Part shown: positions 40,157 to 59,133 of the stretch, piece after piece
How positions within the stretch are numbered: position 1 is the first letter of the stretch
Layout of the letters: every line of letters begins with the position of its first letter
Virus record (IMG/VR): IMGVR_UViG_2061766007_000327
Length of the DNA: 64,000 bases
Direction: 5' to 3' (one strand)
Origin: an uncultured virus (IMG/VR IMGVR_UViG_2061766007_000327)
Lineage: Duplodnaviria; Heunggongvirae; Uroviricota; Caudoviricetes
Made by a program: the position numbers and the translations under genes
Notes under the pieces: generated by a model
Seen by the model: the letters and a program-made list of their open reading frames with translations, nothing else
Databases searched by the model: none
What the model was told of the DNA's origin: nothing

Positions 40157-40276
40157 ATCGCAGTGTTTTGGTTATGATGATTCCTTTCCTCCGTAGTCTT
40201 GTGCAACGAGCATGACTGTAATGGGCGTTGCAGTGTGATTCGGCAGAGTTCGCGTCCTCTCCGGTAATGGACGCAT

Positions 40277-42097: not shown

Positions 42098-42110
42098 TTC
42101 TTTCCCTCCT

Positions 42111-42821: not shown

Positions 42822-42822
42822 A

Positions 42823-43065: not shown

Positions 43066-43412
43066 TACCTTTCCTCCTTTGCATTAAGGCCAAGTTCGTA
43101 GAAGTAGTTGGCAATATCTACAAAAGAGAACCAATTCAGCCATACAACTACTTCTGCCCCTTCACTATATTTAGCAATGTGTTTGTTAAATGAATCCCAC
43201 TCCATTTTAATATCAGCATCCAAATCAGCTTCCTTTTGCTCCTGCTGGAGAGAGTCAATGAGAACAATAGTTTCTTCAAGTGAGGCTATCCTTGCTCCAA
43301 GACTTAACTTATCTGTCTTGCTTAAACCTTCTCTTTCTTTTTCTGTGGAGAATAAAGATTTTTGTCTTTCTATCTCGGCAATCAGTTTTTCTGCGTCAAT
43401 ATATTTAGTCAT
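43065..43412 (-). CDS. hypothetical protein
   Basis: MTKYIDAEKLIAEIER...FYELGLNAK. Confidence 0.65.
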   Translation of the reverse strand: MTKYIDAEKLIAEIERQKSLFSTEKEREGLSKTDKLSLGARIASLEETIVLIDSLQQEQKEADLDADIKMEWDSFNKHIAKYSEGAEVVVWLNWFSFVDIANYFYELGLNAKEER

Positions 43413-43432
43413 ATCTAAATCAAATTAAAAAG

Positions 43433-43514
43433 AGGGTGCGTACTCGGCGAAGTAAATTAATGTCCTATATCATGAGAAATATTCGCATCACTGCGATGTG
43501 CCTTTCCGCACCCT
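43433..43514 (-). ncRNA. structured intergenic RNA candidate A
   Basis: Outer stem AGGGTGCG/CGCACCCT, GAA/AGTA loop-E-like juxtaposition, inner CGCA-GTGA-TGCG hairpin, 34-nt unpaired segment. Confidence 0.5.
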
Positions 43515-43519
43515 ATTGG

Positions 43520-44236
43520 TTAACAATCAGGGTCAAAATGTTGATAATACTCTGGCTCTTCTTTCACTCCCAATTTCTTAAGGTCAGCGTAAAGATTGGC
43601 AAGAAAGTCTGCCATATCATCACAATAATCTTTTCTCAATGCCGCAACAATAGAGAAGAGTCTATCTATCTGCTCCTCGCTGGGTTTCCAATGAGGTTTG
43701 AGGGATTTGAGCCAAGCAATATCAGATTTTACGGCCTCTATCTTATCATAGTCGGATTTGCATCCCTTTACATATTCCAACGCTTCTAAAACATTAGCAT
43801 AATGTAATCTATCTTCCTCGCTCCACTCTGGCTTCTGCTCTTTCTGCTTCATAGCATCATCCCACCCACGCCAATATGCAGGAGTATCACGGATGTCCGT
43901 ACCATCAGAATCGCTATGTTTTGGGCTTCTATCCTCGCATTTTGCATCTGCCGTGCAATCTGACGAAATAGAATCAGCGGATTTGGGATTTTCTTTCTGC
44001 TTTTCAAGCCAAGCAATATATCTACTTGCTGCTTCTTCGGTAAATGAAATACCACTATTGGAACGACCAATTTTAATGGCATCAATAAGTTGTTTCCTTA
44101 TCCTCTCATCCTCGCTCTCTGCGAGTTCGGGGAAGATTTGTTCTATCTCGTCTACAGATATGTGCATAAGGTTATAACTATCGTGGAGTTCCTTGGCTCG
44201 TTCAAGAGCCTCTTTGTACTTTTCTTCGTAGTTCAT
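43520..44236 (-). CDS. hypothetical protein (YKEALERAK / ESEDERIRK / WKPSEEQ type)
   Basis: Modular phage accessory ORF. Confidence 0.7.
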   Translation of the reverse strand: MNYEEKYKEALERAKELHDSYNLMHISVDEIEQIFPELAESEDERIRKQLIDAIKIGRSNSGISFTEEAASRYIAWLEKQKENPKSADSISSDCTADAKCEDRSPKHSDSDGTDIRDTPAYWRGWDDAMKQKEQKPEWSEEDRLHYANVLEALEYVKGCKSDYDKIEAVKSDIAWLKSLKPHWKPSEEQIDRLFSIVAALRKDYCDDMADFLANLYADLKKLGVKEEPEYYQHFDPDC

Positions 44237-44345
44237 TTCTTTTCCTCCTTTTGTTGTTTGCCACCCATCCTGCGATCCAGAAGCCGACGCTCCAGAGTCC
44301 GAGAGTGATAAATAATACTTCGTTGGTTGTCATACTTATTTCAAG

Positions 44346-44412
44346 AATAAGGGCGCATGGCTGTAAATAAAAGTTAATTCATAATGTCAAACGGTTGCCA
44401 CGCACCCCTATT
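44346..44412 (-). ncRNA. structured intergenic RNA candidate B
   Basis: 16-bp stem with 3 G-U pairs closing a 35-nt loop; shares TAACCAATAGGG(G)TGCG with candidate A. Confidence 0.5.
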
Positions 44413-44414
44413 GG

Positions 44415-44621
44415 TTATAACTGTGGGGAATCTTCGTCACCGTAGAATCTTGAGTGTCGGGCATAGTACCCTTGCAAGGCAATCGCTATGTCCTTATTTA
44501 GTCTTTCATCGGCATACAAAGGTTCAATCTCATCGTGTGCATCATTGTCAAGGATGATCGCTATCTTGCCCTTGTGTCTGCGGATGTTCTCAACTACATT
44601 CCTATCTAATCTGTCTAGCAT
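44415..44621 (-). CDS. hypothetical protein
   Basis: Packed ORF. Confidence 0.5.
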   Translation of the reverse strand: MLDRLDRNVVENIRRHKGKIAIILDNDAHDEIEPLYADERLNKDIAIALQGYYARHSRFYGDEDSPQL

Positions 44622-44875
44622 ATTTCCTTGTTTAAACGATAGACGAGTCCGTCCTTAACGATAACGCATTTATCATTTTCGGACAGTTGAACATTATCAG
44701 GTCTTGCGATCTGCTCTACTTTCGGTCCACCGAAGAGACCTACTCTATGGACTGCGAAAGATATGTCCTTATTCAAGGCTGTCACTCTCGCACAATGATG
44801 GACAGTGCCCTCAAAGAATCTCTGGGCATCTGCTCTGATAAGGCGTAAACGCCATAACGCTTTTATTCTTCTCAT
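44615..44875 (-). CDS. hypothetical protein
   Basis: Packed ORF with A-rich leader. Confidence 0.55.
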   Translation of the reverse strand: MRRIKALWRLRLIRADAQRFFEGTVHHCARVTALNKDISFAVHRVGLFGGPKVEQIARPDNVQLSENDKCVIVKDGLVYRLNKEIC

Positions 44876-44897
44876 ATTTTATTGTGTTAATTCCTTG

Positions 44898-44995
44898 TTC
44901 CCTCCCGGGGAGTCGAACCCCTATTGATTGGCAAGTTAAGGGTGTTTGATATAGCGTGAAAAAGACTTACAGCCACCCGTGTGGCACAGGAGGGA
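44898..44995 (-). ncRNA. tRNA-like RNA with an expanded 28-nt anticodon loop
   Basis: Acceptor TCCCTCC/GGAGGGA, D-like GCCAC-ACGG-GTGGC, stem GTAAGT/ACTTGC, T arm GGGG-TTCGACT-CCCC. Confidence 0.6.
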
Positions 44996-45013
44996 AGCGA
45001 CGCATCACTGCGG

Positions 45014-45388
45014 TTAATCGTCTATTATATCATCCATATCGTATTTATCCGAATCTACCTCCTCGGCATACGCCTCCAGCACCGCCTTCAGAGCAGCCTT
45101 CCAGGCATCGCTGATATTGGCGGCATCGATAGTCGCGATCACATCATCTGAAACAGTCCCGACATCTTGCATATCGCAATACGGAGCAAGACCGACACTA
45201 GTATCTTCACCGGCCTCGAACGAAGCCTGCACCTTGAATTCCTTGGGGACACAATCCGACACCTCGGCCAGCCTATCGAGGACATCCTCCATATAGACTA
45301 ATGCTTCTGCGGTGAAATCACGCGCCCACCAATAACCACCAACCATTCCGTTGCCATCGTAACTTACTCTTCCACTTCTGTAACTCAT
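45014..45388 (-). CDS. acidic hypothetical protein
   Basis: Start MSYRSG; D/E-rich. Confidence 0.6.
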   Translation of the reverse strand: MSYRSGRVSYDGNGMVGGYWWARDFTAEALVYMEDVLDRLAEVSDCVPKEFKVQASFEAGEDTSVGLAPYCDMQDVGTVSDDVIATIDAANISDAWKAALKAVLEAYAEEVDSDKYDMDDIIDD

Positions 45389-45389
45389 A

Positions 45390-46160
45390 TTAATTTTGCC
45401 TCCTGATTTCTTGAATCCACTTCGACAGCGTGCAAGCATTCATCTTGCAACCCTCACGGGTTGAAAATCCCGTCAGTCCCATCTCGTGGAATTCGTTAAA
45501 CTCTCGTAATATATCTTTTTGTAACCGGCCTTTCTGGACCTGCTTCTTGATCCAGCGGTAGCCGTCATTAGATTCACGCCAGGCACGGGCATCGTCAGCC
45601 TTTATCCTCGCCTGGACTGCTGTAGCGGCAGAGACATCGACGCCCTTATCATTACCGAGATGCTTGCGCCAATGCCCGGACTTGGACATAAAGCCGCCGT
45701 CCTTGGCAATCGCTTTCTTTCGCTCTTCAAGAGCCAGTTTCGTATTAATTCTGCCCATAATAGCCTGGCGTTCTGCAACCGCAAAGAGGACCGTAAGAAC
45801 GAACCTATCGGATGCAGGCACATCGCATATAACAATATTCCTTTCCCCGACAGCATCGAGGATTTCAAGAGCCTCTTGTACATTTCTCAAGCGATCAAAC
45901 TTAGAGATGCACAGAACATAGTTATTTTGCTTACACAATTCAATCGCCTCCCAAAGACCCTTACACTGTTTGAGCTTCGTCCCCGAAAACACATCCGTGA
46001 ACATCGCCACGGGGTCACGCCCCATAAACATCTTCGCAATCGCCTCCTGGGCAGACAATCCCAATCCGCTCCGACCCTGGCGGCCGGTAGATACACGCCT
46101 CCAAAGGACATATGGTCTTTGGTCGTGGAACGGAACTATTTCAACATTCTTCTTCGCCAT
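45390..46160 (-). CDS. serine recombinase (resolvase/invertase family)
   Basis: RVSTGRQ..SGLGL.AQ catalytic motif, SKFDRLR, AERQ...RINTKLAL. Confidence 0.85.
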   Translation of the reverse strand: MAKKNVEIVPFHDQRPYVLWRRVSTGRQGRSGLGLSAQEAIAKMFMGRDPVAMFTDVFSGTKLKQCKGLWEAIELCKQNNYVLCISKFDRLRNVQEALEILDAVGERNIVICDVPASDRFVLTVLFAVAERQAIMGRINTKLALEERKKAIAKDGGFMSKSGHWRKHLGNDKGVDVSAATAVQARIKADDARAWRESNDGYRWIKKQVQKGRLQKDILREFNEFHEMGLTGFSTREGCKMNACTLSKWIQEIRRQN

Positions 46161-46680
46161 AGTCTGATAAATATTGCCATTTGTATCCGTGGTGGGTCTT
46201 AAGTTTCCCCTTACAAACCTTGGAGATTTGATTCTTATTAAAGCCCCCCTCTCGCTTCGCCTCAGCTATGGACGACCAAATTTGTATCAACTGATTATCT
46301 TTGGTCAACTGTACCACCCGGAAAGATTTTGCAGCACCGTATCGCTTGCGTGAGATAGGATTCTTTTGGTTCTCACTTTGGTTACACCAGCGGAGATTAT
46401 CCGCTCGATTATTTCTACGATTAGTGTCGATGTGGTCGACAAATGGCTTATTATCGGGATTAGGGATGAAAGCTATCGCAACCAACCGCGCGACCCTACA
46501 ACTTTGAACAGTAGTCCCTTTACATAGGTGAATATAATCATAATCTTTCAAACTAACCCAGGGCGTCATAATCCTTGTCGCCTTTGTATGGTTGTAGTTA
46601 AGACTCCGAACTCTCCCGAGATTACTCACCTCGTATAAGCCTTCATAGCCCACAACTGGTTTCCAAATTTCTTTTTCCAT
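46141..46680 (-). CDS. NUMOD4-HNH homing endonuclease
   Basis: EIWKPVVGYEGLYEVSNLGRVRS, VDHIDTNRRNNRADNLRW, NUMOD1 tail; start MEKEIW. Confidence 0.9.
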   Translation of the reverse strand: MEKEIWKPVVGYEGLYEVSNLGRVRSLNYNHTKATRIMTPWVSLKDYDYIHLCKGTTVQSCRVARLVAIAFIPNPDNKPFVDHIDTNRRNNRADNLRWCNQSENQKNPISRKRYGAAKSFRVVQLTKDNQLIQIWSSIAEAKREGGFNKNQISKVCKGKLKTHHGYKWQYLSDYGEEEC

Positions 46681-46811
46681 TGAACTGATGTTATCAATTA
46701 TACTGATGAAAAAGAAAGCAGGAAGGGCCATCAGTTTACCTTTGTCGCGAGGGGATCAAGTCTCGCTATCCTGCTTCTGTAAATATAGTCAGAAACATTT
46801 GAATATGCAAA
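46681..46811 (-). promoter_or_regulatory. promoter plus structured 5' leader of HNH gene 2
   Basis: TTTG-N20-TATATTTA, stem AAGCAGGA/TCCTGCTT, two inner hairpins, two CATCAGT boxes. Confidence 0.7.
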
Positions 46812-46935
46812 TTTTCTCAGCGTCTCGCCAACATGTCGTCGGCATATGCTATCAACATTATAAGGAAAAACATAGTCTATCGCTTTTCGTTAAACGCCTC
46901 GGGGATGAATGAAAGCGCACATAGGATGTAGATTA

Positions 46936-47217
46936 TTACAAACATGATACGAACGCTTTAAGATTATAGAATGTCCTGAACCAGTCCGCTTCAGACTGGC
47001 TCTCGTAGAAGTCGGCGCGATGATAATCCGGCTCGATATCGTCCCCTCTGAGGAAGACCGTCACATCGATACTGAATTCATCCGGCTCGTCACCGAGTGA
47101 CGGGTCTGCCTTGTCATAGCAAGACCGAATGATGAATGAATGAACGCCCTTGAGTGTCGCTTCCGTCTGCAACTGTTGCAGATCTTGAAGCATTTTTACA
47201 AACCTTTCCTTTTCCAT
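46936..47217 (-). CDS. hypothetical protein
   Basis: Start MEKERF. Confidence 0.55.
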   Translation of the reverse strand: MEKERFVKMLQDLQQLQTEATLKGVHSFIIRSCYDKADPSLGDEPDEFSIDVTVFLRGDDIEPDYHRADFYESQSEADWFRTFYNLKAFVSCL

Positions 47218-47252
47218 AATATCAGATTTACTTACAAGAAATATGCCATAAC

Positions 47253-47678
47253 TTAAAATGATAGGTCGTAATAATCTGACCTGTAACCAAGGGAAAGAAG
47301 CGTACTCCAATCCCTGCTCGTAGAACCTTCCTCTACCCAGTGGCCATTGCGCCGGAAGGTGAAGATTTTTGTGCAACTGTAAAGACTGTCGCACTTGACT
47401 TGGATCCTTTTGGGAGAAAGAATCTTTTCGACGTGTGCGCCACTGCGGTCGGAATACCAATGTACCGTACAAGGCATGCCGACTTCGGGAATAACCTGCT
47501 TACGCATCTTGTCGCGTGTTTCCGACAGTTCATGGTACTCATCCCACAGGGCATTATACTCCTCGCGATAGTCATCCCATTTGCGCCCTGTCGCACGAAC
47601 CGCCTCCCTCTTCTGTTCATTTTGGGCCATACGGTCCTGGACCGCCTTGAGCTCCGACCACTTATAAATCAAATCCAT
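47253..47678 (-). CDS. hypothetical protein
   Basis: Start MDLIYK; PEVGMPCT..W.SDR and FRRNGHW...YYDLSF motifs. Confidence 0.65.
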   Translation of the reverse strand: MDLIYKWSELKAVQDRMAQNEQKREAVRATGRKWDDYREEYNALWDEYHELSETRDKMRKQVIPEVGMPCTVHWYSDRSGAHVEKILSPKRIQVKCDSLYSCTKIFTFRRNGHWVEEGSTSRDWSTLLSLGYRSDYYDLSF

Positions 47679-47679
47679 A

Positions 47680-47880
47680 TTACTCCCTCCCAGTTTCTTC
47701 AAGCCAAATGTCAACGTCAGTCTCTTCGTCCTGCTCGTAGCGCTTCCCGCACCATTCAATGTATTCGATAATGTCTTCTGCGGTATAATTCTGCAAGAGC
47801 ATGCAAGCAACGGCGTCTGCTTCGTGAAGGCTAAGGAAATACGCCATCACTTTGTACAACTTTTCATAACCGAGTTCCAT
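47680..47880 (-). CDS. small acidic protein
   Basis: Packed ORF. Confidence 0.55.
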   Translation of the reverse strand: MELGYEKLYKVMAYFLSLHEADAVACMLLQNYTAEDIIEYIEWCGKRYEQDEETDVDIWLEETGRE

Positions 47881-47886
47881 AATATT

Positions 47887-48144
47887 CTATTTTAAGTTTT
47901 GAATGTATTCTTTTGCTTTTCTCTCCGTAAACAACTCTATCTCGAGCAAATAGTCCGTTTCCTCCCGCCAATCTTCATCGTGAGACTGCCACCACTGCTC
48001 AAACTCCTCTGCCCAATCGCGGAAGGTCTGAAACAAATCGCGGGAATCCTGGTCATACTGATTATCCTCGCCATAGATTATCGGCCACGCATCAAGCGTG
48101 ATGTACTGCGCATTCTCGCAGAGTAATGATGTCTGTGTGTCCAT
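47887..48144 (-). CDS. small acidic protein
   Basis: Packed ORF. Confidence 0.55.
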   Translation of the reverse strand: MDTQTSLLCENAQYITLDAWPIIYGEDNQYDQDSRDLFQTFRDWAEEFEQWWQSHDEDWREETDYLLEIELFTERKAKEYIQNLK

Positions 48145-48316
48145 GTTAGTTCTTAATATTACTGGTAATCTTGTTTATTCATTTCCCGCCAGATCGATAA
48201 GACCTGCTTGTAAAACTTTGTTTTGGTTCCATTACAGAACGCCTCTTCAAGAAGCGCATCCCTCAGAAGGCCCTTGATGCGGAACAACTCCGCGCGAAGC
48301 ATAGCCTTTGTCATAA

Positions 48317-48577
48317 CTACCTCCCTCTATAATTAACTGTCTCTGCAGGGAATAGTATTCCAATCCCGTCCCACCCTTCGGTATTTAACGGTCTTGCAAT
48401 GCATCCAATGCTCTCCGAGCCGGTTACCTTGTAAAGTACTCCATCGGATTCGAAGATATCTCCCTCTGTAAGGTCCATAGAGTTTGCCTTTCCACCAGGC
48501 TTCGGCGCATCGAGCGTGTGATACGTTGTCTTCCCCGTGCGCATATCTGTCATCGAAATTGTGCGAGTGCGTGCCAT
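48317..48577 (-). CDS. hypothetical protein
   Basis: Packed ORF. Confidence 0.55.
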   Translation of the reverse strand: MARTRTISMTDMRTGKTTYHTLDAPKPGGKANSMDLTEGDIFESDGVLYKVTGSESIGCIARPLNTEGWDGIGILFPAETVNYRGR

Positions 48578-48578
48578 A

Positions 48579-48962
48579 TTATTTCCAAGTTACTATACCA
48601 TTGACTACTGTCCCCTTATCTACCCCCCAGTCGGGATAAATCTTTATCATAGAACCATTCTCCAAGTATGGAGCAATTCTCTCAAAGGCATCCATCATTA
48701 CGCCTTCCCATCCATAGGAAGCATCGAAATCGGAGTCCATCGAGCCGTCTCCCCTTGTCTTAAGATTCCCGCTCCATCCTCCGAAAAAGATTTTAAGCAA
48801 GTCCTCGATTGTATCAGAACCAATACCCAGCTCTTGGTAGTGGCCAAGATTGTAGTTTGTATGTTCTTCTGCAGCCCAGGATATCTTATCATTAAGAGCA
48901 TCCGCTGCTTTTTGCTTATCAGTGAAGTTGACCTTCAAAATTACACTGTAACACTGTCCCAT
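48579..48962 (-). CDS. hypothetical protein
   Basis: Start MGQCYS; FDASYGWE motif. Confidence 0.6.
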   Translation of the reverse strand: MGQCYSVILKVNFTDKQKAADALNDKISWAAEEHTNYNLGHYQELGIGSDTIEDLLKIFFGGWSGNLKTRGDGSMDSDFDASYGWEGVMMDAFERIAPYLENGSMIKIYPDWGVDKGTVVNGIVTWK

Positions 48963-48964
48963 AG

Positions 48965-49210
48965 CTAGAAAATTTTGATCCAGTAATCTTTTGAGTCGAT
49001 GAAATGTGTGAGGCACTGATTGAATGTGTCCTCAAACTCTTGTTCGTCGTAGACACCAATAAAATCGTCCTCGTAACCCGTGTTTCGAAGGAGATAATCC
49101 TGTTGGAACTTAGTCTCCCTTTCTATTTCTTTTTCAGACGCATCGCTGAGTCCATTGTATCCCTCCCAACTTTCTGGAAGCAGATTCCATCTTCCTACGT
49201 AGATTTTCAT
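48965..49210 (-). CDS. hypothetical protein
   Basis: Start MKIYVG. Confidence 0.55.
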   Translation of the reverse strand: MKIYVGRWNLLPESWEGYNGLSDASEKEIERETKFQQDYLLRNTGYEDDFIGVYDEQEFEDTFNQCLTHFIDSKDYWIKIF

Positions 49211-49593
49211 TTCTGTTTCTTTTGTGATTTGACTATCGTAACCTTTTTGCCGGCATCGGCAAGAATTTTGACCGCCTTCCAAATGTCTGCATCCATCTGG
49301 TCTGCGAAGAAGTGGAAGTCATCGGCGCCGTGGTAGCAGTCATCCTTCATCGCACGTTTGAGGTGACCCGTGTCGCACCAGAATCCGATGAGCTGTACTC
49401 TTTTATCCCCTTTCTTTATTTTTGTGCCGAACTCTTCATAGTCCTCCTTGACCTTGTAGAAGTACATGTCCGCCCACAGGTCAACATTGGCGTGACACAT
49501 CCAGTTCTTAAATTTCCTTTCTGGCTCATCCGGCCATTTCTCGGTCTTCGTGTAGTAACCGATACGATTTTTGTAACTTACTCTGAGTGCCAT
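49207..49593 (-). CDS. hypothetical protein
   Basis: Start MALRVS. Confidence 0.6.
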   Translation of the reverse strand: MALRVSYKNRIGYYTKTEKWPDEPERKFKNWMCHANVDLWADMYFYKVKEDYEEFGTKIKKGDKRVQLIGFWCDTGHLKRAMKDDCYHGADDFHFFADQMDADIWKAVKILADAGKKVTIVKSQKKQK

Positions 49594-49942
49594 AATGTTT
49601 TTTTTATTCCGTAGCTTCAAGGTTATCCATAATGTCATCCGGTCCGTAAGCGCCACCTCTGAACGCACCGGCTTCGTCCAGATCGGTTAAGAACTCATAG
49701 AGCCTGTTCTTAAATATCTGATAAGGCAGATCAGGCTCCGCATAGTCTTCGTAGATGTCTTTAAGAGTTTTCATATCTCTTCTGTTTTAAGCATTTGGAT
49801 ATTAATCATTGTGTCTGTAGTTGTCTCGGTCATATCATCATACGCCCCGAGCATCTCCCTGACGGCATCCCATGCGTCTCGCTCTTTCTTGATGTCCTCG
49901 CCCTCAATATAGAGCTCTGCAACAATTCTGAACTTTGCCATA

Positions 49943-50131
49943 TCAATAGTCCCACGCCTCCTTAGCGCCACTTGTGAGTTGAAAATAGATGTTTACATAG
50001 CGGTCGCGTTCCGCGCCTTCCGAATGCATAATGCAATCGAGATATTTTTGAATCGCAAGACCGCGCTCCATCACTTCCTGCTGATTGTAACAGGTCACGA
50101 CCACAAGGTCAACCTTTCTTCTGCGTGCCAT
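49943..50131 (-). CDS. hypothetical protein
   Basis: SEGAERDRY..IY motif. Confidence 0.55.
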   Translation of the reverse strand: MARRRKVDLVVVTCYNQQEVMERGLAIQKYLDCIMHSEGAERDRYVNIYFQLTSGAKEAWDY

Positions 50132-50133
50132 TG

Positions 50134-50439
50134 CTATCCCTCCACGATTCCGATGAACTGTGTCAGCACAAAGCTACGCCACATCTTTTTGTCGAGGTCC
50201 CAGTAGCCCAGCGTGGTCGGGCACTCCGGCTTCCCACTGGTCTTGAACTCGTACTGCGAGCCGTCCTCCTGGACCATCAGCTCGAACTTGCGAGTACCAT
50301 TCGCGTCACGGATCGTACCGTCTTTCTTTTTGAAGCAGAACCTTACCGCTTCATCTACCATCTTTTCCTGCAGATACATAATCTCATCTGCCTTGAAGCC
50401 CTTGATGCCGAGCTCCACCAACTGTTCCTTTGTCTTCAT
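50134..50439 (-). CDS. DUF2693 / WYL-like SH3 beta-barrel protein
   Basis: VRFCFKKKDGTIRDANGT...YWDLDKKMWRSF. Confidence 0.75.
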   Translation of the reverse strand: MKTKEQLVELGIKGFKADEIMYLQEKMVDEAVRFCFKKKDGTIRDANGTRKFELMVQEDGSQYEFKTSGKPECPTTLGYWDLDKKMWRSFVLTQFIGIVEG

Positions 50440-50440
50440 A

Positions 50441-50677
50441 TTACTTTACTTCTTTAATTGTGAAACTTGCGACCGCCATCGGGTCCCTTTTAACTTGTGT
50501 GAACATCTTATCGTGCCAGTAGAGTGCCTCATCCAGCATTGATATTGCTCCGGTTATGCCTTTCTTGATTCTCACTTCAGTGCTACTTGGCGCCGGACTT
50601 GCAAACGGCCAGTAACCACTCTGCGTTATCTCCTCAAGAGTGCTTAAGCACTCAGCTAATTTGTCGTGAATATCCAT
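50441..50677 (-). CDS. hypothetical protein
   Basis: Packed ORF. Confidence 0.5.
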   Translation of the reverse strand: MDIHDKLAECLSTLEEITQSGYWPFASPAPSSTEVRIKKGITGAISMLDEALYWHDKMFTQVKRDPMAVASFTIKEVK

Positions 50678-50679
50678 GA

Positions 50680-50904
50680 TTATCCCTCCAAAAATTTGAT
50701 TTGTTCCTCAAGTTCTGCGATTCTCTCCAAGATTTTCTCCGGAGTGTCGAACACTTTCCAGCCCCTCACTTCCGAGCCCCATCTCTTCGCTTGCTGGACC
50801 GCTGCTACGGTGACTCCCAGTAGCTTAGCTGCTGCATACTCCGATGCTACGGTCTTCCTTTGCCCTTCCTTAATAAGGATAGTTTCTCTTTGTGCTCTTG
50901 CCAT
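50680..50904 (-). CDS. small HTH-like protein
   Basis: SEYAAAKLLGVTVAAVQQA. Confidence 0.55.
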   Translation of the reverse strand: MARAQRETILIKEGQRKTVASEYAAAKLLGVTVAAVQQAKRWGSEVRGWKVFDTPEKILERIAELEEQIKFLEG

Positions 50905-51036
50905 TTTTGATTCTATCTATATAACGTTTCCACTGGGCAGCCGTATCAAAGGTCAGCACTTCCGTGCCAATGACGGAGCGGTAGCCACCCTGCGACCGCT
51001 CCATCAGATTATATCCCTCGTAAGTCAATAGGTACG

Positions 51037-51270
51037 TCATGACTCAGACACCTCCGTGATGTAATCATTGGCATCCTCCATGCTTGACTGCGCATCCTCC
51101 ATTGTAGAGATAAACTCTTCCATCTGCTCGCCCCTCTCACTGTCTTGGATGCCCTCGGGCAGATTGTCATAAGCATCCTGCTCCTCGTCGATAACCTCCT
51201 GCAGTCGATCCATCAGACCGACCAATTCATCGCTGATTTTCTCAAGCTCTTTCCTTCTTTGTTTGTTCAT
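51037..51270 (-). CDS. highly acidic helical protein
   Basis: MNKQRRK...EEQDAYDNLPEGIQDSERGEQMEE. Confidence 0.7.
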   Translation of the reverse strand: MNKQRRKELEKISDELVGLMDRLQEVIDEEQDAYDNLPEGIQDSERGEQMEEFISTMEDAQSSMEDANDYITEVSES

Positions 51271-51617
51271 GATTAAAAGTATTTAAGATTAAACCTCCGG
51301 CAAGACAGAACATCAGAAAGTTCGTAGGCTCGCCCCAATATAGTCCAAGCGCCACTGCCGTGGCTGCTAGGATAAGTTTCACTTTAGCCATCGCTCTTTG
51401 ATTGTTATAACATTCCACTTGAACTCCACCTCCGCAATCTGCTCGCGGATGCATCGNNNNNNNNNNTCCGACCTCACTAAGCCACTCTCCTGAGTATATT
51501 TTGTAGCCTTTCTCGAAGCGGTCTACCTCGGCATACTTGCGCCCGGTCTGCTTATCCCTAAACAGCCAGAACTTGCCGTACGGGTTCTGGCATTCCGTGA
51601 TGATGATTGTTGTCATA

Positions 51618-52337
51618 TCAATGTGCTTCAAATAAGATTGTTTCACCATTCTTTGCGCCCCAACAACCAGTCCATGCCTCGGCGCACTCTTCGCATGAGC
51701 CAGGACACATAAACTGCTTATCGGTGCAGTGCGGTCCTTTAGTCCCGTCCGCCCATAGAGGACTGCTCACAGGCAGGTTGTACGGATTCTCGAATTCCGC
51801 TCCGCGCCAATCCGAAAAGATGATGTGCAGGTTCTTAGGCAACGGTCCTACATTGGTTATGTACTCATTAACAAGATCGTACATCTTCGTGAATGCCAGA
51901 AACTCGCATGTCGGTGTTTGCTCGGCAATGGTTACCATCGCTTCAAGATACGGATGACTGATAATGTCCGCACCGACATGCCATCTAAAGAATCGCAGAT
52001 ACTTGACTGCCTTGAAAATCTCACCGAAATACTTCTGCGGGTCTTGGTGGAATATCGCGCTGTTGTTAGCCCTGCTCTTCTGCACTGTCTTCTGGAAGCA
52101 AACGTTCCTTACATCATAACAACCCCTCGCACAAACCTTGCAGTTCCCGCAGTCGGCCACCGGAATCATACTCACTGAAGGTACAAGCGCACCGGTCTTG
52201 CGGTTGCCATAACTCAACTTGACGTGAGCGTTCTCCACGTCAACTTCGTTTCTAAATTCCAACATCTGCTGAACTCTTCGCTTGATCGCATCAGCGCTGA
52301 ACTCTTTGTAATTGTGCTTAAACTCTGTCTTTGCCAT
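51618..52337 (-). CDS. GP88-like phage protein (Cys-rich)
   Basis: GNRKTG, C..C..C..GCY, FRWHVGADI, AFTK, C-terminal CPGSCEEC. Confidence 0.7.
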   Translation of the reverse strand: MAKTEFKHNYKEFSADAIKRRVQQMLEFRNEVDVENAHVKLSYGNRKTGALVPSVSMIPVADCGNCKVCARGCYDVRNVCFQKTVQKSRANNSAIFHQDPQKYFGEIFKAVKYLRFFRWHVGADIISHPYLEAMVTIAEQTPTCEFLAFTKMYDLVNEYITNVGPLPKNLHIIFSDWRGAEFENPYNLPVSSPLWADGTKGPHCTDKQFMCPGSCEECAEAWTGCWGAKNGETILFEAH

Positions 52338-52339
52338 GA

Positions 52340-52579
52340 TTATTCCTCTATTGTCCTTGTTTGTACCCAGAATCTTTTAACAAGCCTCCCACATTCGAGG
52401 ACCTGGAAATTATCCAAGTCCCCCTCAACCGTGTAGCCTTTCTCTATCGCGTAGTCACGCTCGGCCTTCATAGCATAGAAGGCTCCGTCAAACGTGGCGT
52501 GGAGCGAAAGAAGCGTGTCCTTCCCGCTCAACACTTCACGTCTCATCATGATGTAAACTGTATAGCCTATCATACCCAT
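52340..52579 (-). CDS. hypothetical protein
   Basis: Packed ORF. Confidence 0.5.
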   Translation of the reverse strand: MGMIGYTVYIMMRREVLSGKDTLLSLHATFDGAFYAMKAERDYAIEKGYTVEGDLDNFQVLECGRLVKRFWVQTRTIEE

Positions 52580-52726
52580 TCAATTATTGTTGGTTTACCA
52601 TAAGGCGTGCATATCATATGACGCCCATAATAACAGTCGTCGAAGTACATCATATCTTTCCAGTATACCTCAACTAGATTTCGGCACGCCCGCTCTTTAT
52701 ACACTCCGATGTACTTGCCGACATCC

Positions 52727-52912
52727 TTAGCGTAATACCGTTGCCCTTTCATATGTGTTCACTCTATTTACGCCAGCCATCCAGCTGATATCGCCCAAGC
52801 GATACCCTCCGGCATCTTCAAGCCAGTTCTCAATCTCTTCACTCAGCTCCATCTCCGGAGCCTCAATGATGTCGACCTCGCCGACACTATAATCTAATAC
52901 TGCTATTTTCAT
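52727..52912 (-). CDS. small acidic protein
   Basis: MKIAVLDYS...ISWM. Confidence 0.55.
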   Translation of the reverse strand: MKIAVLDYSVGEVDIIEAPEMELSEEIENWLEDAGGYRLGDISWMAGVNRVNTYERATVLR

Positions 52913-52914
52913 GA

Positions 52915-53352
52915 TTACCTCCTTGTTGTTTCCTCACTTGCAAAACTGAAATACTCGTTGTCCGCGATGATAACGTGGTCGATAAGTTCGATATCCAAAC
53001 ACTTCAGACCGTCCCTCACATCCTTCGTCTGATTGATGTCCGCCGTACTTGGCTTAGCATTACCGCTCGGATGGTTATGCACCAGGATGACTCCGTCTGC
53101 CAGCATATCAACCGCGACCTTCGCGATAACCTTCTTATCAAAGACCGTCGAGTTCGTCCCACCGATACTCAGCAGGAAATGGCCCTTGATGTTCATTCCC
53201 TTGTCCAAAGTCAGCACCCACGCCATTTCTCGCCACTGCTCATCCGTAGGCATGCAGTACAGTTCAACATACTTGACAACATCGCTAGCCGTCAAAACCT
53301 TAAACGGAGCATCCTCCTTGAGAACACTCCGCACCAACTTCAATTCGTACAT
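52915..53352 (-). CDS. radC: RadC-like JAB/MPN domain protein
   Basis: E...LD, GG, VILVHNHPSG..KPS.AD, IELIDHVII...YFSFA; start MYELKL. Confidence 0.85.
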   Translation of the reverse strand: MYELKLVRSVLKEDAPFKVLTASDVVKYVELYCMPTDEQWREMAWVLTLDKGMNIKGHFLLSIGGTNSTVFDKKVIAKVAVDMLADGVILVHNHPSGNAKPSTADINQTKDVRDGLKCLDIELIDHVIIADNEYFSFASEETTRR

Positions 53353-53642
53353 TATACGATTTCGTTTAATTTTGTGTAAACTTTTATTACTAGTTCCCTT
53401 AGTTGTTTCTTGGTCATCCCGTCCAAGCCGTCCTTGCCTACGACACTCTCCATGTGCAGGATGATACCCCAAATTTCCTTTTCCATGTTACATGAAACTT
53501 TGTTCTCCCAAATAATCCTTTTGTTCGTCACTCAGACTGCTGAACTCTTCCCAACTCATATCGATCCAGCCCCAATCGCCCATGCAGTCATCAAGACCAA
53601 CGACCATGATGCCGTCGCCCTTGTCATAGTATTGATACCGTG

Positions 53643-53891
53643 TCATGACTCTTCCCAGATGATTCCGTTCTCGTCTCCCTCAATAACCTCGTCCCAATCT
53701 ACCTCAGAACAGTCGACCTCATTGTTCCAGCACCACTCTTCAATGGCCTCAACAATTTCGTTGTATAAGCTACAGTCCGCCATTCTTAATGGACAACGGT
53801 CGAGCCCCATCCAGCCGAGCGCCACACTCAAACGCTCTTCGTAGAAAACAACATGATTCCGTACATAGACGGCTACTTTACTCTTGTTCAT
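53643..53891 (-). CDS. small acidic protein
   Basis: Packed ORF. Confidence 0.5.
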   Translation of the reverse strand: MNKSKVAVYVRNHVVFYEERLSVALGWMGLDRCPLRMADCSLYNEIVEAIEEWCWNNEVDCSEVDWDEVIEGDENGIIWEES

Positions 53892-54056
53892 AACTCAATG
53901 TCTGTGAAGTCCCAATCGTACTTATCTGGTTCATACAAGCCGTCCATCTTATCTATGCGCTCGTAGTTGTGTATGGCTATCAAAGCCCTTTCGACCGTTG
54001 CATGGTAGCTTACCTGCTCGCCCGATTCCTTGTGAATTACTGCTATCGCTTTCATC

Positions 54057-54755
54057 TTAGCACTCACTTATTATGTCATCACTGTTTAGAAAATACCGCT
54101 CCAAGAACATTTCCTTGTAGTCGGTCTTGAACTTCCCATTCACCCAGGCAAGCACGCTTGCGTAGGTAAACAACTCCTTCGATTCGACACGCTCGTACTT
54201 CGTCATCGGTAGTGCCGGCCTCTCGTTGGTCGGAGCCTTCCACCAACTGCCGTACTTCTCCATCAGCGCATCATAGCGGTCAACATACTCTTTCATCGCT
54301 TGGTCGTTCCAACTCACATCGTAAACCTCGCCATAGAATCCGAGCCGGTCATCTCCGTTGTGGCTCTTGTTGTACCTCGGATGAATCTCGATGAACCACA
54401 CATGGCCCGTCTTGTCCTTGAATGTCGTCCGGATCCGGTAATTACCGATACCATCGTTCACGGTCGGAGGATAGTCACCTCCCATCCGATGCCAAGTCAA
54501 GATCCCCCGCTGCGAGCAATACTCCATTGTTTCGGCCTTGCGTTCCCCGAACCTCTGCATCGCAAACTCGATCTGCCCGTCGCTGATTTCCCATTTCCTA
54601 CGATAATCCGGCCAGTTTACATAGTGACCGTCCGTCACGCTCTCGCCATTGAGCCATCGACCATAGCCGGTCGCGTACCTTGCTTCCCTGATGCCAGCAT
54701 CACTCGACATCATGTCATTGAACAGCTCGTCCGTCAAAATCGGATACTTTGCCAT
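54057..54755 (-). CDS. hypothetical protein
   Basis: GNYRIRTTF.D..G..WFIE motif. Confidence 0.65.
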   Translation of the reverse strand: MAKYPILTDELFNDMMSSDAGIREARYATGYGRWLNGESVTDGHYVNWPDYRRKWEISDGQIEFAMQRFGERKAETMEYCSQRGILTWHRMGGDYPPTVNDGIGNYRIRTTFKDKTGHVWFIEIHPRYNKSHNGDDRLGFYGEVYDVSWNDQAMKEYVDRYDALMEKYGSWWKAPTNERPALPMTKYERVESKELFTYASVLAWVNGKFKTDYKEMFLERYFLNSDDIISEC

Positions 54756-54758
54756 AAC

Positions 54759-55046
54759 CTAAATATTATACAGTCCTTCGATATACCCTTTCCTCGCCTC
54801 GGTCTGCCCTCTGAGGCACGCACCCAGATACACCCAGCCGTTCTCCGACCGCTTAAAGGTGTCGTAAATCGCCCAGGCTGGATGCTCCGCGTCCTGGTCC
54901 TTCGGTTCGCCCACTTGAAACAATCCACCACCCAACCAAGTCGGTGGCACGCAGTTCTTCAACTCATTTACTACCGCATCAGACACTTCCTGCCCGACCG
55001 CGATGTTCAGAGAGCCGTCACGCTCCCAATCAGTCATTGTGTACAT
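54759..55046 (-). CDS. hypothetical protein
   Basis: NCVPP...FQVGEP motif. Confidence 0.6.
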   Translation of the reverse strand: MYTMTDWERDGSLNIAVGQEVSDAVVNELKNCVPPTWLGGGLFQVGEPKDQDAEHPAWAIYDTFKRSENGWVYLGACLRGQTEARKGYIEGLYNI

Positions 55047-55085
55047 ACTGTTGCTTTGTGTTTATTCGTTGTCCTTACGCCTCAA

Positions 55086-55499
55086 TCACAGGCTAGTCGC
55101 CCTTTCATTATATTCCTTTCTGGCATAGTCCATTGACTCTTTGTCAGAGTTGAGTACAATCAGCCCATGAGCGTAGTCGTAGTCGTCGCCGTACATTAGT
55201 GCTTCATGGTTGTACCACAGAAACGCAGTACATTCATATTTCCCGTCCACTATACAAGGGAATACACCATCTAAGAATAAGTATTTGTAAGTTTTTGGCC
55301 CGGCATTCGCGAAGTTGTGCGTTATTTCATGCACATTGTCTTCGAACTCATCCGCGTTATCCGGTGCGCAAATGTCATAACCGACAAGTTGCTCAATTTC
55401 CCCATGTAAATAAACTCCGCAATGCAGAAACCCGACCGCTCCGTCATGATGGTCGCGGTAGTTCTCTGAATAATAAGAGTTGATTTTTAAGGTTTTCAT
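55086..55499 (-). CDS. hypothetical protein
   Basis: ORF with AT-rich leader. Confidence 0.6.
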   Translation of the reverse strand: MKTLKINSYYSENYRDHHDGAVGFLHCGVYLHGEIEQLVGYDICAPDNADEFEDNVHEITHNFANAGPKTYKYLFLDGVFPCIVDGKYECTAFLWYNHEALMYGDDYDYAHGLIVLNSDKESMDYARKEYNERATSL

Positions 55500-55664
55500 A
55501 ATGCTAATTTATCGGTTCAACCTTTTCAAAGCCAAAGAATATCTGATAGACCCCTTCGACTCCGTTAAACTTGGCCTGCACGACCGTTCCTCGTTTGCAG
55601 GTCACAATCATTTCCTTGCCGTCATACATAAAACGGCTGCCTACCGGCATTTCTGATACTGATT

Positions 55665-55895
55665 TCATTTGCACATCTCTTTTAGTTCCTTCTTAATTCT
55701 CCTAGCAGTTTCGCCACGCCAGGTGCTGGCGTTGCATAAGAAGTACAGGACAACACTCTTCGCGCTGTCACAGTAATAGTTGTCGTTGATGCTCTCGATC
55801 GACATCATCGCATCCAAATAGTCCTTCGCATACGGACTCACCTTTGCGCCCCAATCCTTGCGGATTTCGCGGGCAATTTCACAAATCGCTCTCAT
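55665..55895 (-). CDS. conserved small phage protein
   Basis: IAREIRKDW...YLDAM...VLYFL.NA.TWRGE.ARRIKKEL. Confidence 0.7.
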   Translation of the reverse strand: MRAICEIAREIRKDWGAKVSPYAKDYLDAMMSIESINDNYYCDSAKSVVLYFLCNASTWRGETARRIKKELKEMCK

Positions 55896-56101
55896 CTTAC
55901 TTTACTTTTTCAATGAAACAATACTTCCCATAGCGAGCCTTCAAGGCTATCATTTTCCTCGCTCGCTTCTCGCTCTCGTACGTGCCTACTTCGATCCGCA
56001 CGCCACGATACATCCTGTAAACTCTAAACATTGCCGTTCACTTTTTCGTCGCTCGGGAACATTCCCACGACAACCAACATTATTACTAAGACCCACATAT
56101 C

Positions 56102-56284
56102 CTATGCGTTTATCATTGCTTTGTACATCTCAATACTTTCGCGTCCCTCCGCGATTTGATACCATCCGCTTATCCGCGTCCAGAACTCCCCCGCCCTCAT
56201 CGCTCGCTCCGCGGTCGGTCGCTCTTCAACCCGAATAATTACATTGAATCGGTCGTAAATCACTGCTGCGTATTCGTTATGCAT
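56102..56284 (-). CDS. hypothetical protein
   Basis: Packed ORF. Confidence 0.45.
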   Translation of the reverse strand: MHNEYAAVIYDRFNVIIRVEERPTAERAMRAGEFWTRISGWYQIAEGRESIEMYKAMINA

Positions 56285-56406
56285 AATTCCTGTGGTTTTT
56301 CTTGTTCAACTTCGTCCGCTTCGCAATCTTACGACTACGGCGGTCGTCCATCTCGTACATCTCATCCCAAGACATACGATTCCATTCATGCTTTGTCTTC
56401 ATCGCT

Positions 56407-56568
56407 CTACCCTCCAATCGTGTAAGACACTTCCGCCACAGAATAGATATACTCATCTTGGTGGCTCATAATTCGGGCATAATCTTCAGCATCGCTCTTG
56501 TTATCGCAAGTAAACAAAACTGACGGGTTCAAACTTTTGAACCAACGCAATACAACATACTTTTTCAT
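56407..56568 (-). CDS. 53-aa hypothetical protein (not in the ORF track)
   Basis: Read manually as MKKYVVLRWFKS...YTIGG*. Confidence 0.45.
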   Translation of the reverse strand: MKKYVVLRWFKSLNPSVLFTCDNKSDAEDYARIMSHQDEYIYSVAEVSYTIGG

Positions 56569-56595
56569 CGCTAACTAATTTTATAAGGTTATTCG

Positions 56596-57170
56596 TAGCG
56601 AGCGCCCGATTCGATCGGACAGCATCGCGCCTTTCGCTCGCCCATTACTCAGTAGCCAATTTTCTCTGCTTCGTGCCAGATTCTGAAACACGACATAGTA
56701 AACTCATTACTTTCGACTACCTACGGCTGTTCAACTTATATCTATTCGTTCGGTTTGCCATTCCATTGTCGCTCTTCGTCCATTTTATCTCTAGGTATGG
56801 ATACCTGTCAGAACGCTCGTGTCGTGTGTCACTCACTACTGGACATAGTTTCCTCCGAACCTTCTATGTCGTTCCGCTCGTTCCCGCTGGTTCTATACGC
56901 TCCGGTTCCAGCACCGTATTTTATACTCCTTATGAGACCGTCCACAGCAAACTCGTTGCTCGGCTTACATCGTTCGGAGTCCCGTCTACTAAACCCGTTC
57001 GTTCGGGTCGTTCGCTCGGTATTCTCAGTATGTCCTGTCATTCGGCCCGTTCACGTCAATTTGGCGTTTCAAGGTCAAAATTTGAGGGTACAAAGTGCCC
57101 CCATCGGCTACATTCAAAAAGCCGATTGCATGGCAAGCTAAGGGACGCATTCAAGTCCCTTAGCCCGTAT
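56596..57170 (-). ncRNA. candidate large structured ncRNA ending in a tRNA-like minihelix
   Basis: ~570 nt with no credible sense ORF inside a densely coding operon; many hairpins; 3' acceptor plus T-arm mimic. Confidence 0.5.
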
Positions 57171-57188
57171 TGATATGTAACTATTTAG

Positions 57189-57623
57189 TTACTTTGTGGT
57201 TGTCGGTGTTACAATAGTTTGGCTGAATCGGTTGCCCTGCCTATTACTTTCAATGCAATTGATAGCGCATTTTTTCAGCAACCCGCGGGCCGTTACACCG
57301 GACAACCTTGCAACCTTGAAAACAACCTTCCCGTCTTCGGTTCTTACCTTATTGCAGGGCTTTCCGTCTTCGGTTGCATATCTTGAAAAATTCTTGATAA
57401 GCCATATTTCAGGCTTTTCTCCCTTACTGCCTGCAATCCCTGCAATAACGGAATTCAATGCCTTATAAGCAGTGTTTTCCGCTTTCAGTCCATCCCATTG
57501 TAGTTTCAACTGCTTTTCAAAAGAGTCGAAAAACGCTTTCACGCTTTCCTTTGCTTTTCTGCTTTCGTCATTGCTGAATTCATTTATAGTCCTTTCAGCG
57601 AAGACATTTTTTACATCTGCCAT
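57189..57623 (-). CDS. first gene of the leftward early operon, hypothetical
   Basis: 144-aa ORF with A-rich leader. Confidence 0.7.
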   Translation of the reverse strand: MADVKNVFAERTINEFSNDESRKAKESVKAFFDSFEKQLKLQWDGLKAENTAYKALNSVIAGIAGSKGEKPEIWLIKNFSRYATEDGKPCNKVRTEDGKVVFKVARLSGVTARGLLKKCAINCIESNRQGNRFSQTIVTPTTTK

Positions 57624-57864
57624 AACTTTTGTTTTTAAGTGTTAAACTTTGCTTTTCAGTGTTGGTAACGCTTGCAGTGTCTTATCTATTAATAGGTATT
57701 TTCCCGCTTGCGTTATACCTATATAATTACAGATATTATGCCAAATATGCTATAATATATAAATTTATACCTTTTGACAACTTAATTATCGTAAAACGAT
57801 ATGAAAATATATTAAATTTATACCTTTTGAATAATTTTAAGTTTGGCACACCTAAAATAGTACA

Positions 57865-57907
57865 TGACAAAATGTCATGACAAAGTGTCAGGCCTGACAA
57901 AATGTCA
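57865..57907. promoter_or_regulatory. three palindromic TGACA-N3-TGTCA boxes
   Basis: 57865-57877, 57878-57890 and 57895-57907. Confidence 0.7.
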
Positions 57908-58136
57908 TGTTTTATGTCTTATCGAAAAACATTAAAAAATTTACGTTTTACGCTGCTTGTAACCAACATCACAAAGGGACTAAATGCTTGATTGTCAACA
58001 ACTTAAAACGTTTTAAAGGGTGGCGGGGTATGCCATGTAGGCCGAGGGACAGACCCCAGGTGCGTTCCTGAAATTTTTTTTCGAGTGTAATTCGATGTAG
58101 CTGAAACTGTGTAAAACCTACCTAATATCATAAGAC

Positions 58137-58354
58137 CTACACTCTATAAATAATTAATTTTCAACTTATTAATCTTTAAAATGTAGAAGTGTAGTTAAGT
58201 AATAAGATATAAAAGGTAATATGCTCTCTTTATACGTATATAAAAAGAATGGCATTTCAGACTACACTCCTACACTGGATCTTCGTAACTGCGATGATTA
58301 TCAATGTGTTGCACCGATGTACCCCTGAATGTAGGGTGTACACTGCCCTACACT
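58137..58354. repeat. CTACACT/AGTGTAG iteron-like repeats around an AT-rich tract (putative origin)
   Basis: CTACACT at 58137, 58262, 58270 and 58348; inverted copies near 58182-58194 and 58330-58341. Confidence 0.5.
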
Positions 58355-58558: not shown

Positions 58559-58929
58559 GGAGGAGCGGAAGGCGCTCTTCGGAAAGTACGAGGTCAGCGA
58601 CCGCGGGATCGTCTACAGCGACGGGATGCNNNNNNNNNNNNNNNNNNNNNNTCGGGGTCAACCTGCGAGGGAAGCGGGTGAAGATCTGCGAGCTGGTGGC
58701 GAAGGCGTTCTTGGATGGGGGCGGAGAAGGTCGCTGGGTCCGGCATAAGAACGGCGATGTAAAGGATAACCGGGTGGAGAACCTGGAGTGGTCGGAAAAG
58801 AAGGAAGAGAGAAGGGGCCGGAAGAGCGCGGAGAGGATCGTAAGGGNNNNNNNNNNGGTGAGCGAGGAGGGGATTAGGTCTTGCCTGCGGGGTGTGCAGA
58901 AAAGTGCCGGGGGACTCTTGTGGTTTTGA
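58533..58929 (+). CDS. HNH endonuclease-like gene (gapped, possibly degenerate)
   Basis: KYEVSDRG, LVAKAF, VRHKNGDVKDNRVENLEW. Confidence 0.6.
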
Positions 58930-58953
58930 CGGAAGTTTCGTAGCTTTGCGTTC

Positions 58954-59133
58954 ATGGGAAATGCAGAGATCTTAAGAGGAATGAGCAGGGAGGAGCTGGA
59001 AAGGCTCTTCGCGGAGCGGCGGATGCTGCTCCTGGAGGTGCGTGACGAGATTGACCGGCGTGACCGCGAATGGGGAAAGCCGGGTGTCGATGTGGACTTC
59101 ACGAAGTATGTAGGTGACGGCATCGAGGGCTAG
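58954..59133 (+). CDS. 59-aa hypothetical protein (not in the ORF track)
   Basis: MGNAEILRG...GIEG*, starting 5 nt after TAGCTTTG (58941-58948). Confidence 0.5.
   Translation: MGNAEILRGMSREELERLFAERRMLLLEVRDEIDRRDREWGKPGVDVDFTKYVGDGIEG

Follow-up and report, generated by a model that had tools for sequence, protein, structure and literature searches.

What is the role of a 620-nucleotide stretch without recognizable genes in the midst of a tightly packed early operon of a tailed phage? The window, by which we mean the whole stretch of 64,000 nucleotides of phage DNA analysed here, encodes on its plus strand the terminase, portal, major head and tape-measure proteins (2-16 kb) and, from 59.7 kb, a primase, a DUF6371 protein and a DnaA-C-like HTH protein. 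An operon of small genes runs leftward on the minus strand from about 57.6 kb down to 40 kb, and the public sequencing runs that contain DNA of this phage are bovine, sheep and goat gut or rumen metagenomes. A previous sequence-only reading had singled out the one long gap in this operon as a candidate large, structured non-coding RNA. Its description of the setting holds. The gap (56569-57188, 620 nt, with the minus strand as sense) follows the gene that opens the leftward early operon, which encodes a 144-aa protein (57189-57623, minus strand) and stands directly upstream of the element, and it precedes a 53-aa open reading frame (ORF; 56407-56568, minus strand) that is outside the element. 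Once a 70-aa ORF within it is disregarded, the gap has no equal in 40000-57900, where stretches free of minus-strand ORFs of at least 45 aa otherwise measure 206 nt at most.

Three kinds of relatives could be compared with the window. Close relatives are represented by contigs X3, X7 and X8 from three related rumen phages found in three studies, which were compared over 55800-58200 and are available as differences only. More distant DNA comes from IMG/VR, which holds one related contig (L002, the same as L053, L056 and L065), and from JGI metagenomes, which hold the same contig again (L054) and a 1-kb fragment, L055. The relatives designated P0033, P0035, P0038 and P0039 are known only through ORFs mis-called in their gaps, and the comparisons of P0038, P0039 and the N-terminus of P0033 combine tool alignments with hand reading. 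GTDB genomes contained no related contigs, and GenBank phages showed no DNA similarity to the gap and none to the 144-aa protein. Searches by shorter signatures added little: an 18-mer from the most conserved part of the gap had no match in viral contigs and a single genome match (L057), a chance hit inside an unrelated gene, and a three-part motif pattern returned 16 loci, 15 of them by chance. We compared 51 loci that encode the neighbouring 76-aa protein (phrog_13953); of these, L002 alone has a gap or motif cluster of this kind. Within the 64-kb window itself we found neither a second copy nor an antisense target of the gap, the best match being 13 nt long with an E-value of 0.45, as expected by chance.

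One answer to our question would be that the gap is coding after all, whether in the 70-aa ORF on the minus strand, in one of the plus-strand ORFs (166 or 128 aa) or in several small ORFs side by side. The gap is indeed tiled by ORFs of 166 and 128 aa on the plus strand and of 70, 41, 39 and 36 aa on the minus strand, and gene callers have annotated such ORFs in relatives. The relatives do not, however, keep a reading frame. Against the plus-strand frames of the window, the 150-aa ORF of P0033 passes from frame A to frame B and back to A with a 4-residue gap, that of P0038 from A to B and into the third frame, and that of P0039 from B to A, and the 99-aa sense-strand ORF of P0035 moves from frame 0 to frame 1 across a TAG of the window. 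Where a coding signature on the overlapping ORFs was looked for, therefore, what we found were ORFs that jump between the frames of the window; letters that are kept while frames shift are what marks a non-coding element. Beyond the gaps of the relatives themselves, there were two weak, low-complexity matches to the 70-aa ORF and none to the plus-strand ORFs, and the gaps of the near relatives, about 1-2% divergent, show no third-position pattern. Long spurious plus-strand ORFs are, moreover, common opposite this purine-rich operon, as exemplified by one of 278 aa at 54300-55136.

Other searches agree. No Pfam or PHROG family was found for the gap ORFs, three of which were scanned against PHROGs, and a tblastx comparison of the window gap with that of L002 gave no match. 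Each sense frame contains TAA, TAG and TGA alike; reassigning any one stop would therefore leave all three frames closed, and stop-codon recoding of the gap is ruled out. The gap at 56569-57188 is non-coding, and we regard a protein-coding role in any of the above forms as exceedingly improbable.

The gap is also a real conserved element under constraint, with recent recombination of the segment carried by the close relatives as the rival account of its low divergence. In X7 and X8, for which the totals per piece are complete, it differs from the window at 10 of 517 and 8 of 463 positions, whereas the 144-aa gene together with its promoter region has 53 differences in 934 positions (X7) and 24 in 470 (X8). 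In X3, where per-site lists provide lower bounds, there are at least 3 differences in 56640-57160 and at least 29 in the 144-aa gene, and 24 of the 29 among those listed fall on third codon positions. Two gene fragments downstream diverge by 6.6% and 6.3% in X7, 5.2% and 4.2% in X8, and 4.1% and 3.1% in X3. Taken over the three close relatives, the gap is thus about 1-2% different, whereas the coding DNA on both sides differs by 3-7%. All three contigs cease to resemble the window at 56591-56604, where we place the 3' edge of the element; beyond it they join 56402 to 56591/56604 and skip the 53-aa ORF, which has no counterpart in them.

On the rival account, the gap would be an ordinary intercistronic spacer in which only the hairpins just past the 144-aa gene matter, as a terminator, pause or stabiliser, and the rest was recently exchanged by recombination. 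Most departures from the window are common to X3, X7 and X8, so that a single recombination event could account for the low divergence of their gaps. The region is a mosaic, too: the 53-aa ORF is missing in the relatives, X3 has 504 nt in place of 253 nt, and the flank of an RNA-derived contig described below is unlike the window. The phage furthermore encodes at least two HNH homing endonucleases. Against this stand the gap divergence itself, which lies below that of the coding DNA on both sides with the shift falling near the stop codon, and the intermediate relatives of the P0033, P0035 and P0039 types, which are more distant than X3, X7 and X8 and nevertheless keep long blocks despite frameshifting indels. 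In the P0033 and P0035 relatives, definite differences are concentrated in two segments, 56716-56768 and 56817-56847, with few in 56848-57040 or 56648-56715. The first of these segments is a variable stretch (56716-56768, minus strand) in which P0038 also changes frame, and the conserved block 3' of it on the sense strand (56648-56715) holds one definite difference in P0033 and three in P0035.

At a greater distance, both sides of this argument find material. L002 encodes a homologue of the 144-aa protein at 71% identity, followed by an ORF-free gap of 822 nt, and L055 one at 56% identity, again followed by an ORF-free gap, in which the contig stops after 326 nt. The bodies of the window and L002 gaps are barely alignable, as the spacer account would have it: a chain of collinear 7-mers between them scores 89, compared with 62 +/- 11 in 200 shuffles (maximum 94). 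Amid these diverged letters, however, L002 and L055 keep the position and orientation of an array of short motifs. Weighing this together with compensatory changes outside the first hairpins, set out below, we consider the spacer account unlikely.

The array, which the sequence-only reading did not contain, is made of the motif GA[AG]CGA, often preceded by CC, on the sense strand. Nine of the 45 copies on that strand of the 64-kb window lie in the gap. The window, L002 and L055 (a fragment) carry 9, 11 and 3 copies in their gaps, where 1.26 (+/- 1.09, from 1000 dinucleotide shuffles), 1.54 and 0.38 are expected, and the observed counts were reached by 0, 0 and 4 of 1000 shuffles, respectively. 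None of the three gaps contains an antisense copy, and in all three lineages the main cluster sits 150-230 nt past the stop codon of the 144-aa gene. Successive copies in the window gap are irregularly spaced, at 4, 9, 29, 92, 9, 100, 23 and 112 nt. The motif is not a general signal before the start codons of the operon, and among 52 fetched loci a cluster of it occurs in the L002 contig only. Direct repeats in one orientation are also compatible with a DNA site.

Six of the nine motifs, often in the form CCGAACGA, fall in the most conserved core of the element (56864-57024, minus strand), in which relatives have few definite differences. This core is present in an RNA library. A 194-nt contig from the RNA-seq run X20 matches 56864-57024 with three differences; beyond 57024 its loose end diverges from the window, as does the ORF of P0039, and reads like the latter, so the contig is no chimera but derives from a relative of the P0039 type. 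Strand and level cannot be read from the contig, which may also stem from DNA carried over into the library; the stretch of the gap that it leaves uncovered and the depth figures are likewise uninformative on expression level. Across 2.4 kb, the same run otherwise yielded nothing but a weak 37-nt match.

Well-supported secondary structure is found at the start of the element. Among 160-nt windows, those within 57280-57001 alone stand out, with z-scores of -3.3 to -4.8 on both strands. This stretch contains H1 (57135-57166, minus strand), which begins 22 nt past the stop codon and has a stem of 10-12 bp and an 8-nt loop, and H2 (57103-57126, minus strand), with a 7-bp stem and a U-rich 10-nt loop. 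The earlier proposal of tandem hairpins at the 5' end is borne out: H1 and H2 together reach a z-score of -5.20, matched by none of 200 shuffles. The corresponding pair scores -5.00 in L002 and -4.19 in L055, again with 0 of 200 shuffles each, and the stem letters are unrelated among the three lineages. Since MAFFT misaligns such unrelated stems, which makes RNAalifold unusable here, each lineage was folded singly. H2 keeps a U-rich loop of 10-11 nt in L002 and L055 on stems that differ from that of the window. A third hairpin, H3 (57084-57102, minus strand), is replaced by unrelated sequence in P0039-type relatives, and a change at 57083 common to X3, X7 and X8 would turn a possible U-A pair at its foot into U-G. 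That H1 to H3 alone fold better than chance is what the spacer account would predict, although compensatory changes do exist outside H1 and H2.

We found no terminator-like site in 56569-57188 and no U runs after H1 and H2 in the window, L002 or L055; a canonical intrinsic terminator, with a GC-rich hairpin and a U-tract, is accordingly rejected.

Whether these hairpins act in RNA or DNA can be approached through their pairs. H1 and H2 together have sense and antisense folding energies (in kcal/mol) of -35.1 and -33.1 in the window, -27.2 and -27.7 in L002, and -28.4 and -21.6 in L055. On the sense strand, two G-U pairs each occur in H1 of the window, H1 of L055, H2 of L002 and H2 of L055, and H1 of L002 has one sense A-C mismatch, which corresponds to a G-U pair on the opposite strand. 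L002 and L055, whose H2 stems contain the G-U pairs, form that hairpin weakly or not at all on the opposite strand. Hand reading of a P0039-type relative further shows a change from A to G at 57156 opposite an unchanged U, by which the pair is kept on the sense strand only.

These pairs bear on a second alternative, in which the gap would be a DNA-level cis element and the GA[AG]CGA motifs iterons or centromere-like sites of an origin, partition or recombination site, bound by a phage protein such as the 144-aa one. Such an element would fit a same-orientation motif enriched in three lineages, its constant inheritance with the gene of a small basic protein and a conservation that is independent of reading frame. 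It would also fit the location: the divergent control region, like the primase and DnaA-C-like genes, is 1-3 kb away, and the minimum of the cumulative GC skew is near. The spacing of the motifs is irregular, however, the gap is not AT-rich (47.7% GC), and no cluster of DnaA-box-like sequences is present, with 15 in the 64-kb window against 13.4 expected and none in the gap. In addition, H2 is held on the sense strand only in L002 and L055 through G-U pairs, which are not selectable on double-stranded DNA. A DNA-level role therefore appears improbable to us, and the sense (minus) strand RNA is probably the active form of the element.

The remainder of the gap does not fold in a comparable way. 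Folded whole on the sense strand, the gap does not surpass its shuffles (z = -0.97), the L002 gap gives a z-score of -1.68, and 160-nt windows across the body (57120-56600) range from -0.9 to +1.1. The hairpins and long-range complementarities that the sequence-only reading had listed in the body are thus at chance level; by simple arithmetic, inverted repeats of 9 to 12 nt are expected about 0.4-0.7 times per 620 nt. The minimum-energy fold of the window was also compared with base sets back-translated from P0033 and P0035, by which 10 of the 77 and 13 of the 69 covered pairs, respectively, are definitely broken. Among these are long-range helices of the sequence-only reading, around 56841-56821 with 56650-56694, and the proposed helix ACACGACA/UGUCGUGU and its neighbours are definitely broken in the relatives as well. 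The purine richness that the earlier description mentioned is 59.4%, equal to that of the flanking coding DNA (58.8-61.4%). As a caution, the hairpins and complementarities picked by eye in this purine-rich gap were mostly at chance level.

Two small hairpins in the body carry evidence of another sort. Hp-A (56842-56870, minus strand) combines a 7-bp stem with a purine-rich 15-nt loop, and Hp-B (56791-56807, minus strand) is smaller still; taken alone, neither folds significantly better than chance (z = -1.35 and -0.66). Each has one compensatory pair, taken from degenerate back-translations of one or two relatives: in the P0035 relative, the pair 56865/56847 of Hp-A changes from A-U to G-C, and 56803/56796 of Hp-B from U-A to C-G. 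Tandem repeats in the gap are limited to a 10-nt repeat of 2.6 copies at 56869-56893. A type III toxin-antitoxin RNA, defined by tandem repeats of about 30-40 nt by an endoribonuclease gene, was rejected given this short repeat.

At the 3' end lies a minihelix (56597-56642, minus strand) in which a 7-bp outer stem is stacked directly on an inner hairpin (z = -0.89, not significant alone). It had been described as tRNA-like. The structure does exist at 56642-56597, and its inner hairpin allows a reading as a 5-bp stem closing a 7-nt loop, six letters of which agree with the T-loop consensus; ARAGORN, however, does not call it, and reports no tRNA or tmRNA anywhere in the 64-kb window. Hand reading gives U-A in both P0033 and P0038 for the pair 56637/56602, which is G-C in the window. 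Insertions are present in the linker of the close relatives.

Could the gap nevertheless be a large, globally folded, ornate RNA of the ROOL or GOLLD kind? According to PMC5737381, ROOL RNAs have a mean length of 581 nt, were first found in cow rumen data, often lie near tRNAs and occur in prophages, and the gap is of similar length (about 570-620 nt) in a phage from bovine rumen or gut samples. The structural evidence goes the other way, with a whole-gap z-score indistinguishable from shuffles, body windows near zero and predicted long-range helices broken in relatives, and the 64 kb hold no tRNA. Rfam 15, with its ROOL and GOLLD models, gave no match at gathering score over the 64 kb; at E <= 10 it gave a single chance match to a snoRNA (13.9 bits) over 56300-57400, and chance matches only in the L002 gap. 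The ROOL/GOLLD-type reading is largely refuted, and an ornate global fold of any such kind seems very unlikely. Of the large structured RNA first proposed, what endures is a conserved non-coding element that is probably a sense RNA; what does not is the single large and ornate fold.

The gene that precedes the element is its constant companion: in all three lineages for which DNA was seen (window, L002 and L055), the gene of the 144-aa protein is followed by an ORF-free gap. We found 32 relatives of this basic protein, with identities of 51-98%. It belongs to no Pfam or PHROG family and had no usable match in the ESM Atlas. An AlphaFold2 model (pLDDT 85.8) comprises four helices, a β-hairpin and a further helix. 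Comparison with solved folds gave none that corresponds (Foldseek against the PDB, E >= 0.23; VIA-align wide, Z <= 4.1), nor did Foldseek and VIA-align reveal a recognizable nucleic-acid-binding fold; ribosomal protein S7 and ANTAR proteins, with Z of about 3.3, are within noise.

The explanation that we tentatively favour, although with less than firm confidence, is a non-coding RNA that is transcribed and built of modules, perhaps as a platform for protein binding, in place of one large fold. This explanation builds on the covariation of the hairpins, thinly sampled with two distant DNA relatives, the enrichment and single orientation of the motif, and the presence of the core in an RNA library. 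The element, from about 57166 to 56597, would be part of the leftward early transcript and comprise three modules. The first would be the two covarying hairpins directly past the stop codon of the 144-aa gene. The second would consist of about 400 nt of conserved, weakly structured RNA bearing the GA[AG]CGA array and the two small hairpins, and the third would be the minihelix, resembling an acceptor and T-arm, that closes the element. We would guess that the hairpins and minihelix define where the RNA ends or shield those ends, acting by pausing, processing or stabilisation, and that the single-stranded array offers a platform on which many copies of one protein could bind. Candidate binders are the co-inherited 144-aa protein and a host RNA-binding protein.

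Carried one step further, these features might define a new class of phage non-coding RNA: early, about 450-570 nt long, capped by hairpins, ending in a tRNA-like minihelix and displaying about ten sites of the CCGAACGA type as a protein sponge or assembly platform, either forming a ribonucleoprotein with the 144-aa protein or titrating a host regulator at the start of infection. We put this forward as a speculative and, on present evidence, rather unlikely extension. To our knowledge, functional non-coding RNAs encoded by phages are few and hardly any come from rumen phages. The element is conserved more than its coding neighbours and is paired with a protein without a family, and its motif can be tested directly. 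If the array binds a protein, it would be a phage counterpart of bacterial sponge RNAs or part of a new early-infection ribonucleoprotein; should it instead prove to act as DNA, it would point to where replication begins, or to a partition site, in a group of uncultured phages.

How does such an element compare with known systems? With ROOL and GOLLD it shares length, rumen habitat and phage context, and it differs in having no Rfam match, no nearby tRNA and no sign of a global fold. In lambdoid phages, a regulatory non-coding region, nutR/tR1, follows cro, and the satellite P4 produces CI RNA by processing of a leader. Like these, the element lies directly past the first small early gene, and its hairpins and tRNA-like 3' end could direct processing; unlike them, it is much longer, matches no corresponding sequence or model and has no U-tract terminator. 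A Rho utilisation site is a poor parallel, as the sense RNA is G-rich and C-poor.

Iteron origins and centromere-like arrays likewise consist of short repeats in one orientation adjoining the gene of a small basic protein, but the spacing here is irregular, the sequence is not AT-rich and the hairpins favour one strand through G-U pairs. Protein-sponge RNAs of bacteria, such as CsrB/RsmZ and CrcZ, are a few hundred nucleotides long, poorly paired and filled with many copies of one short motif in one orientation; made as transcripts of their own, they titrate a defined RNA-binding protein. Our element, a putative sponge, departs from them in its motif, GA[AG]CGA in place of GGA or CA-rich sequences, and in its place within a phage operon, with neither a promoter nor a terminator of its own found. 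It resembles them in its general design, with many copies of one short motif carried on the sense strand only.

The early operon downstream of the conserved non-coding element (56569-57188, minus strand) forms a hot spot for gene exchange. Compared with three related rumen phages, the window carries an extra 53-aa ORF within the segment 56403-56590, and further downstream 253 nt of the window (56023-56275) are replaced in X3, the contig of one of these relatives, by a different segment of 504 nt. HNH homing endonucleases may be a driver of this local mosaicism: the window encodes two free-standing enzymes with NUMOD4, HNH_3 and I-HmuI-like domains on the minus strand (38784-39362 and 46141-46731), and a third, HNH-like ORF on the plus strand (about 58560-59130) contains two N runs (58630-58651 and 58847-58856) that hide part of its sequence. 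In total, 17 masked runs lie between 5893 and 58856, the longest at 7135-7323, and none falls within the element. The neighbouring 76-aa protein (55665-55895, minus) belongs to the PHROG family phrog_13953, of unknown function; its relatives, 45-77% identical, occur at 51 IMG/VR loci in phages that differ widely.

Stop codons are scarce on the plus strand because the sense strand is rich in purines, and this gives rise to long plus-strand ORFs of 126-278 aa (54300-55136, 55858-56238 and 56673-57173) opposite real minus-strand genes. ORFs of this opposite-strand kind have been called as proteins by gene callers in public data, as with P0033, P0038 and P0039 in the gaps of relatives.

Directly upstream of the element, the first gene of the leftward early operon (57189-57623, minus) encodes a 144-aa protein with a confidently predicted fold (pLDDT 85.8) and an invariant C-terminal block (consensus ALNCIESQR.GNRF). 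Searches against solved folds (Z ≤ 4.1) and against families returned no match, and the protein is a candidate new fold.

An 18-nt repeat is present in two copies (57760 and 57813). The two early operons are separated by an AT-rich divergent region, which holds three copies of a 15-nt palindromic site, TGACA-N5-TGTCA, at 57865-57909, spaced by 13 and 17 nt; these copies look like operators of the repressor/Cro type.
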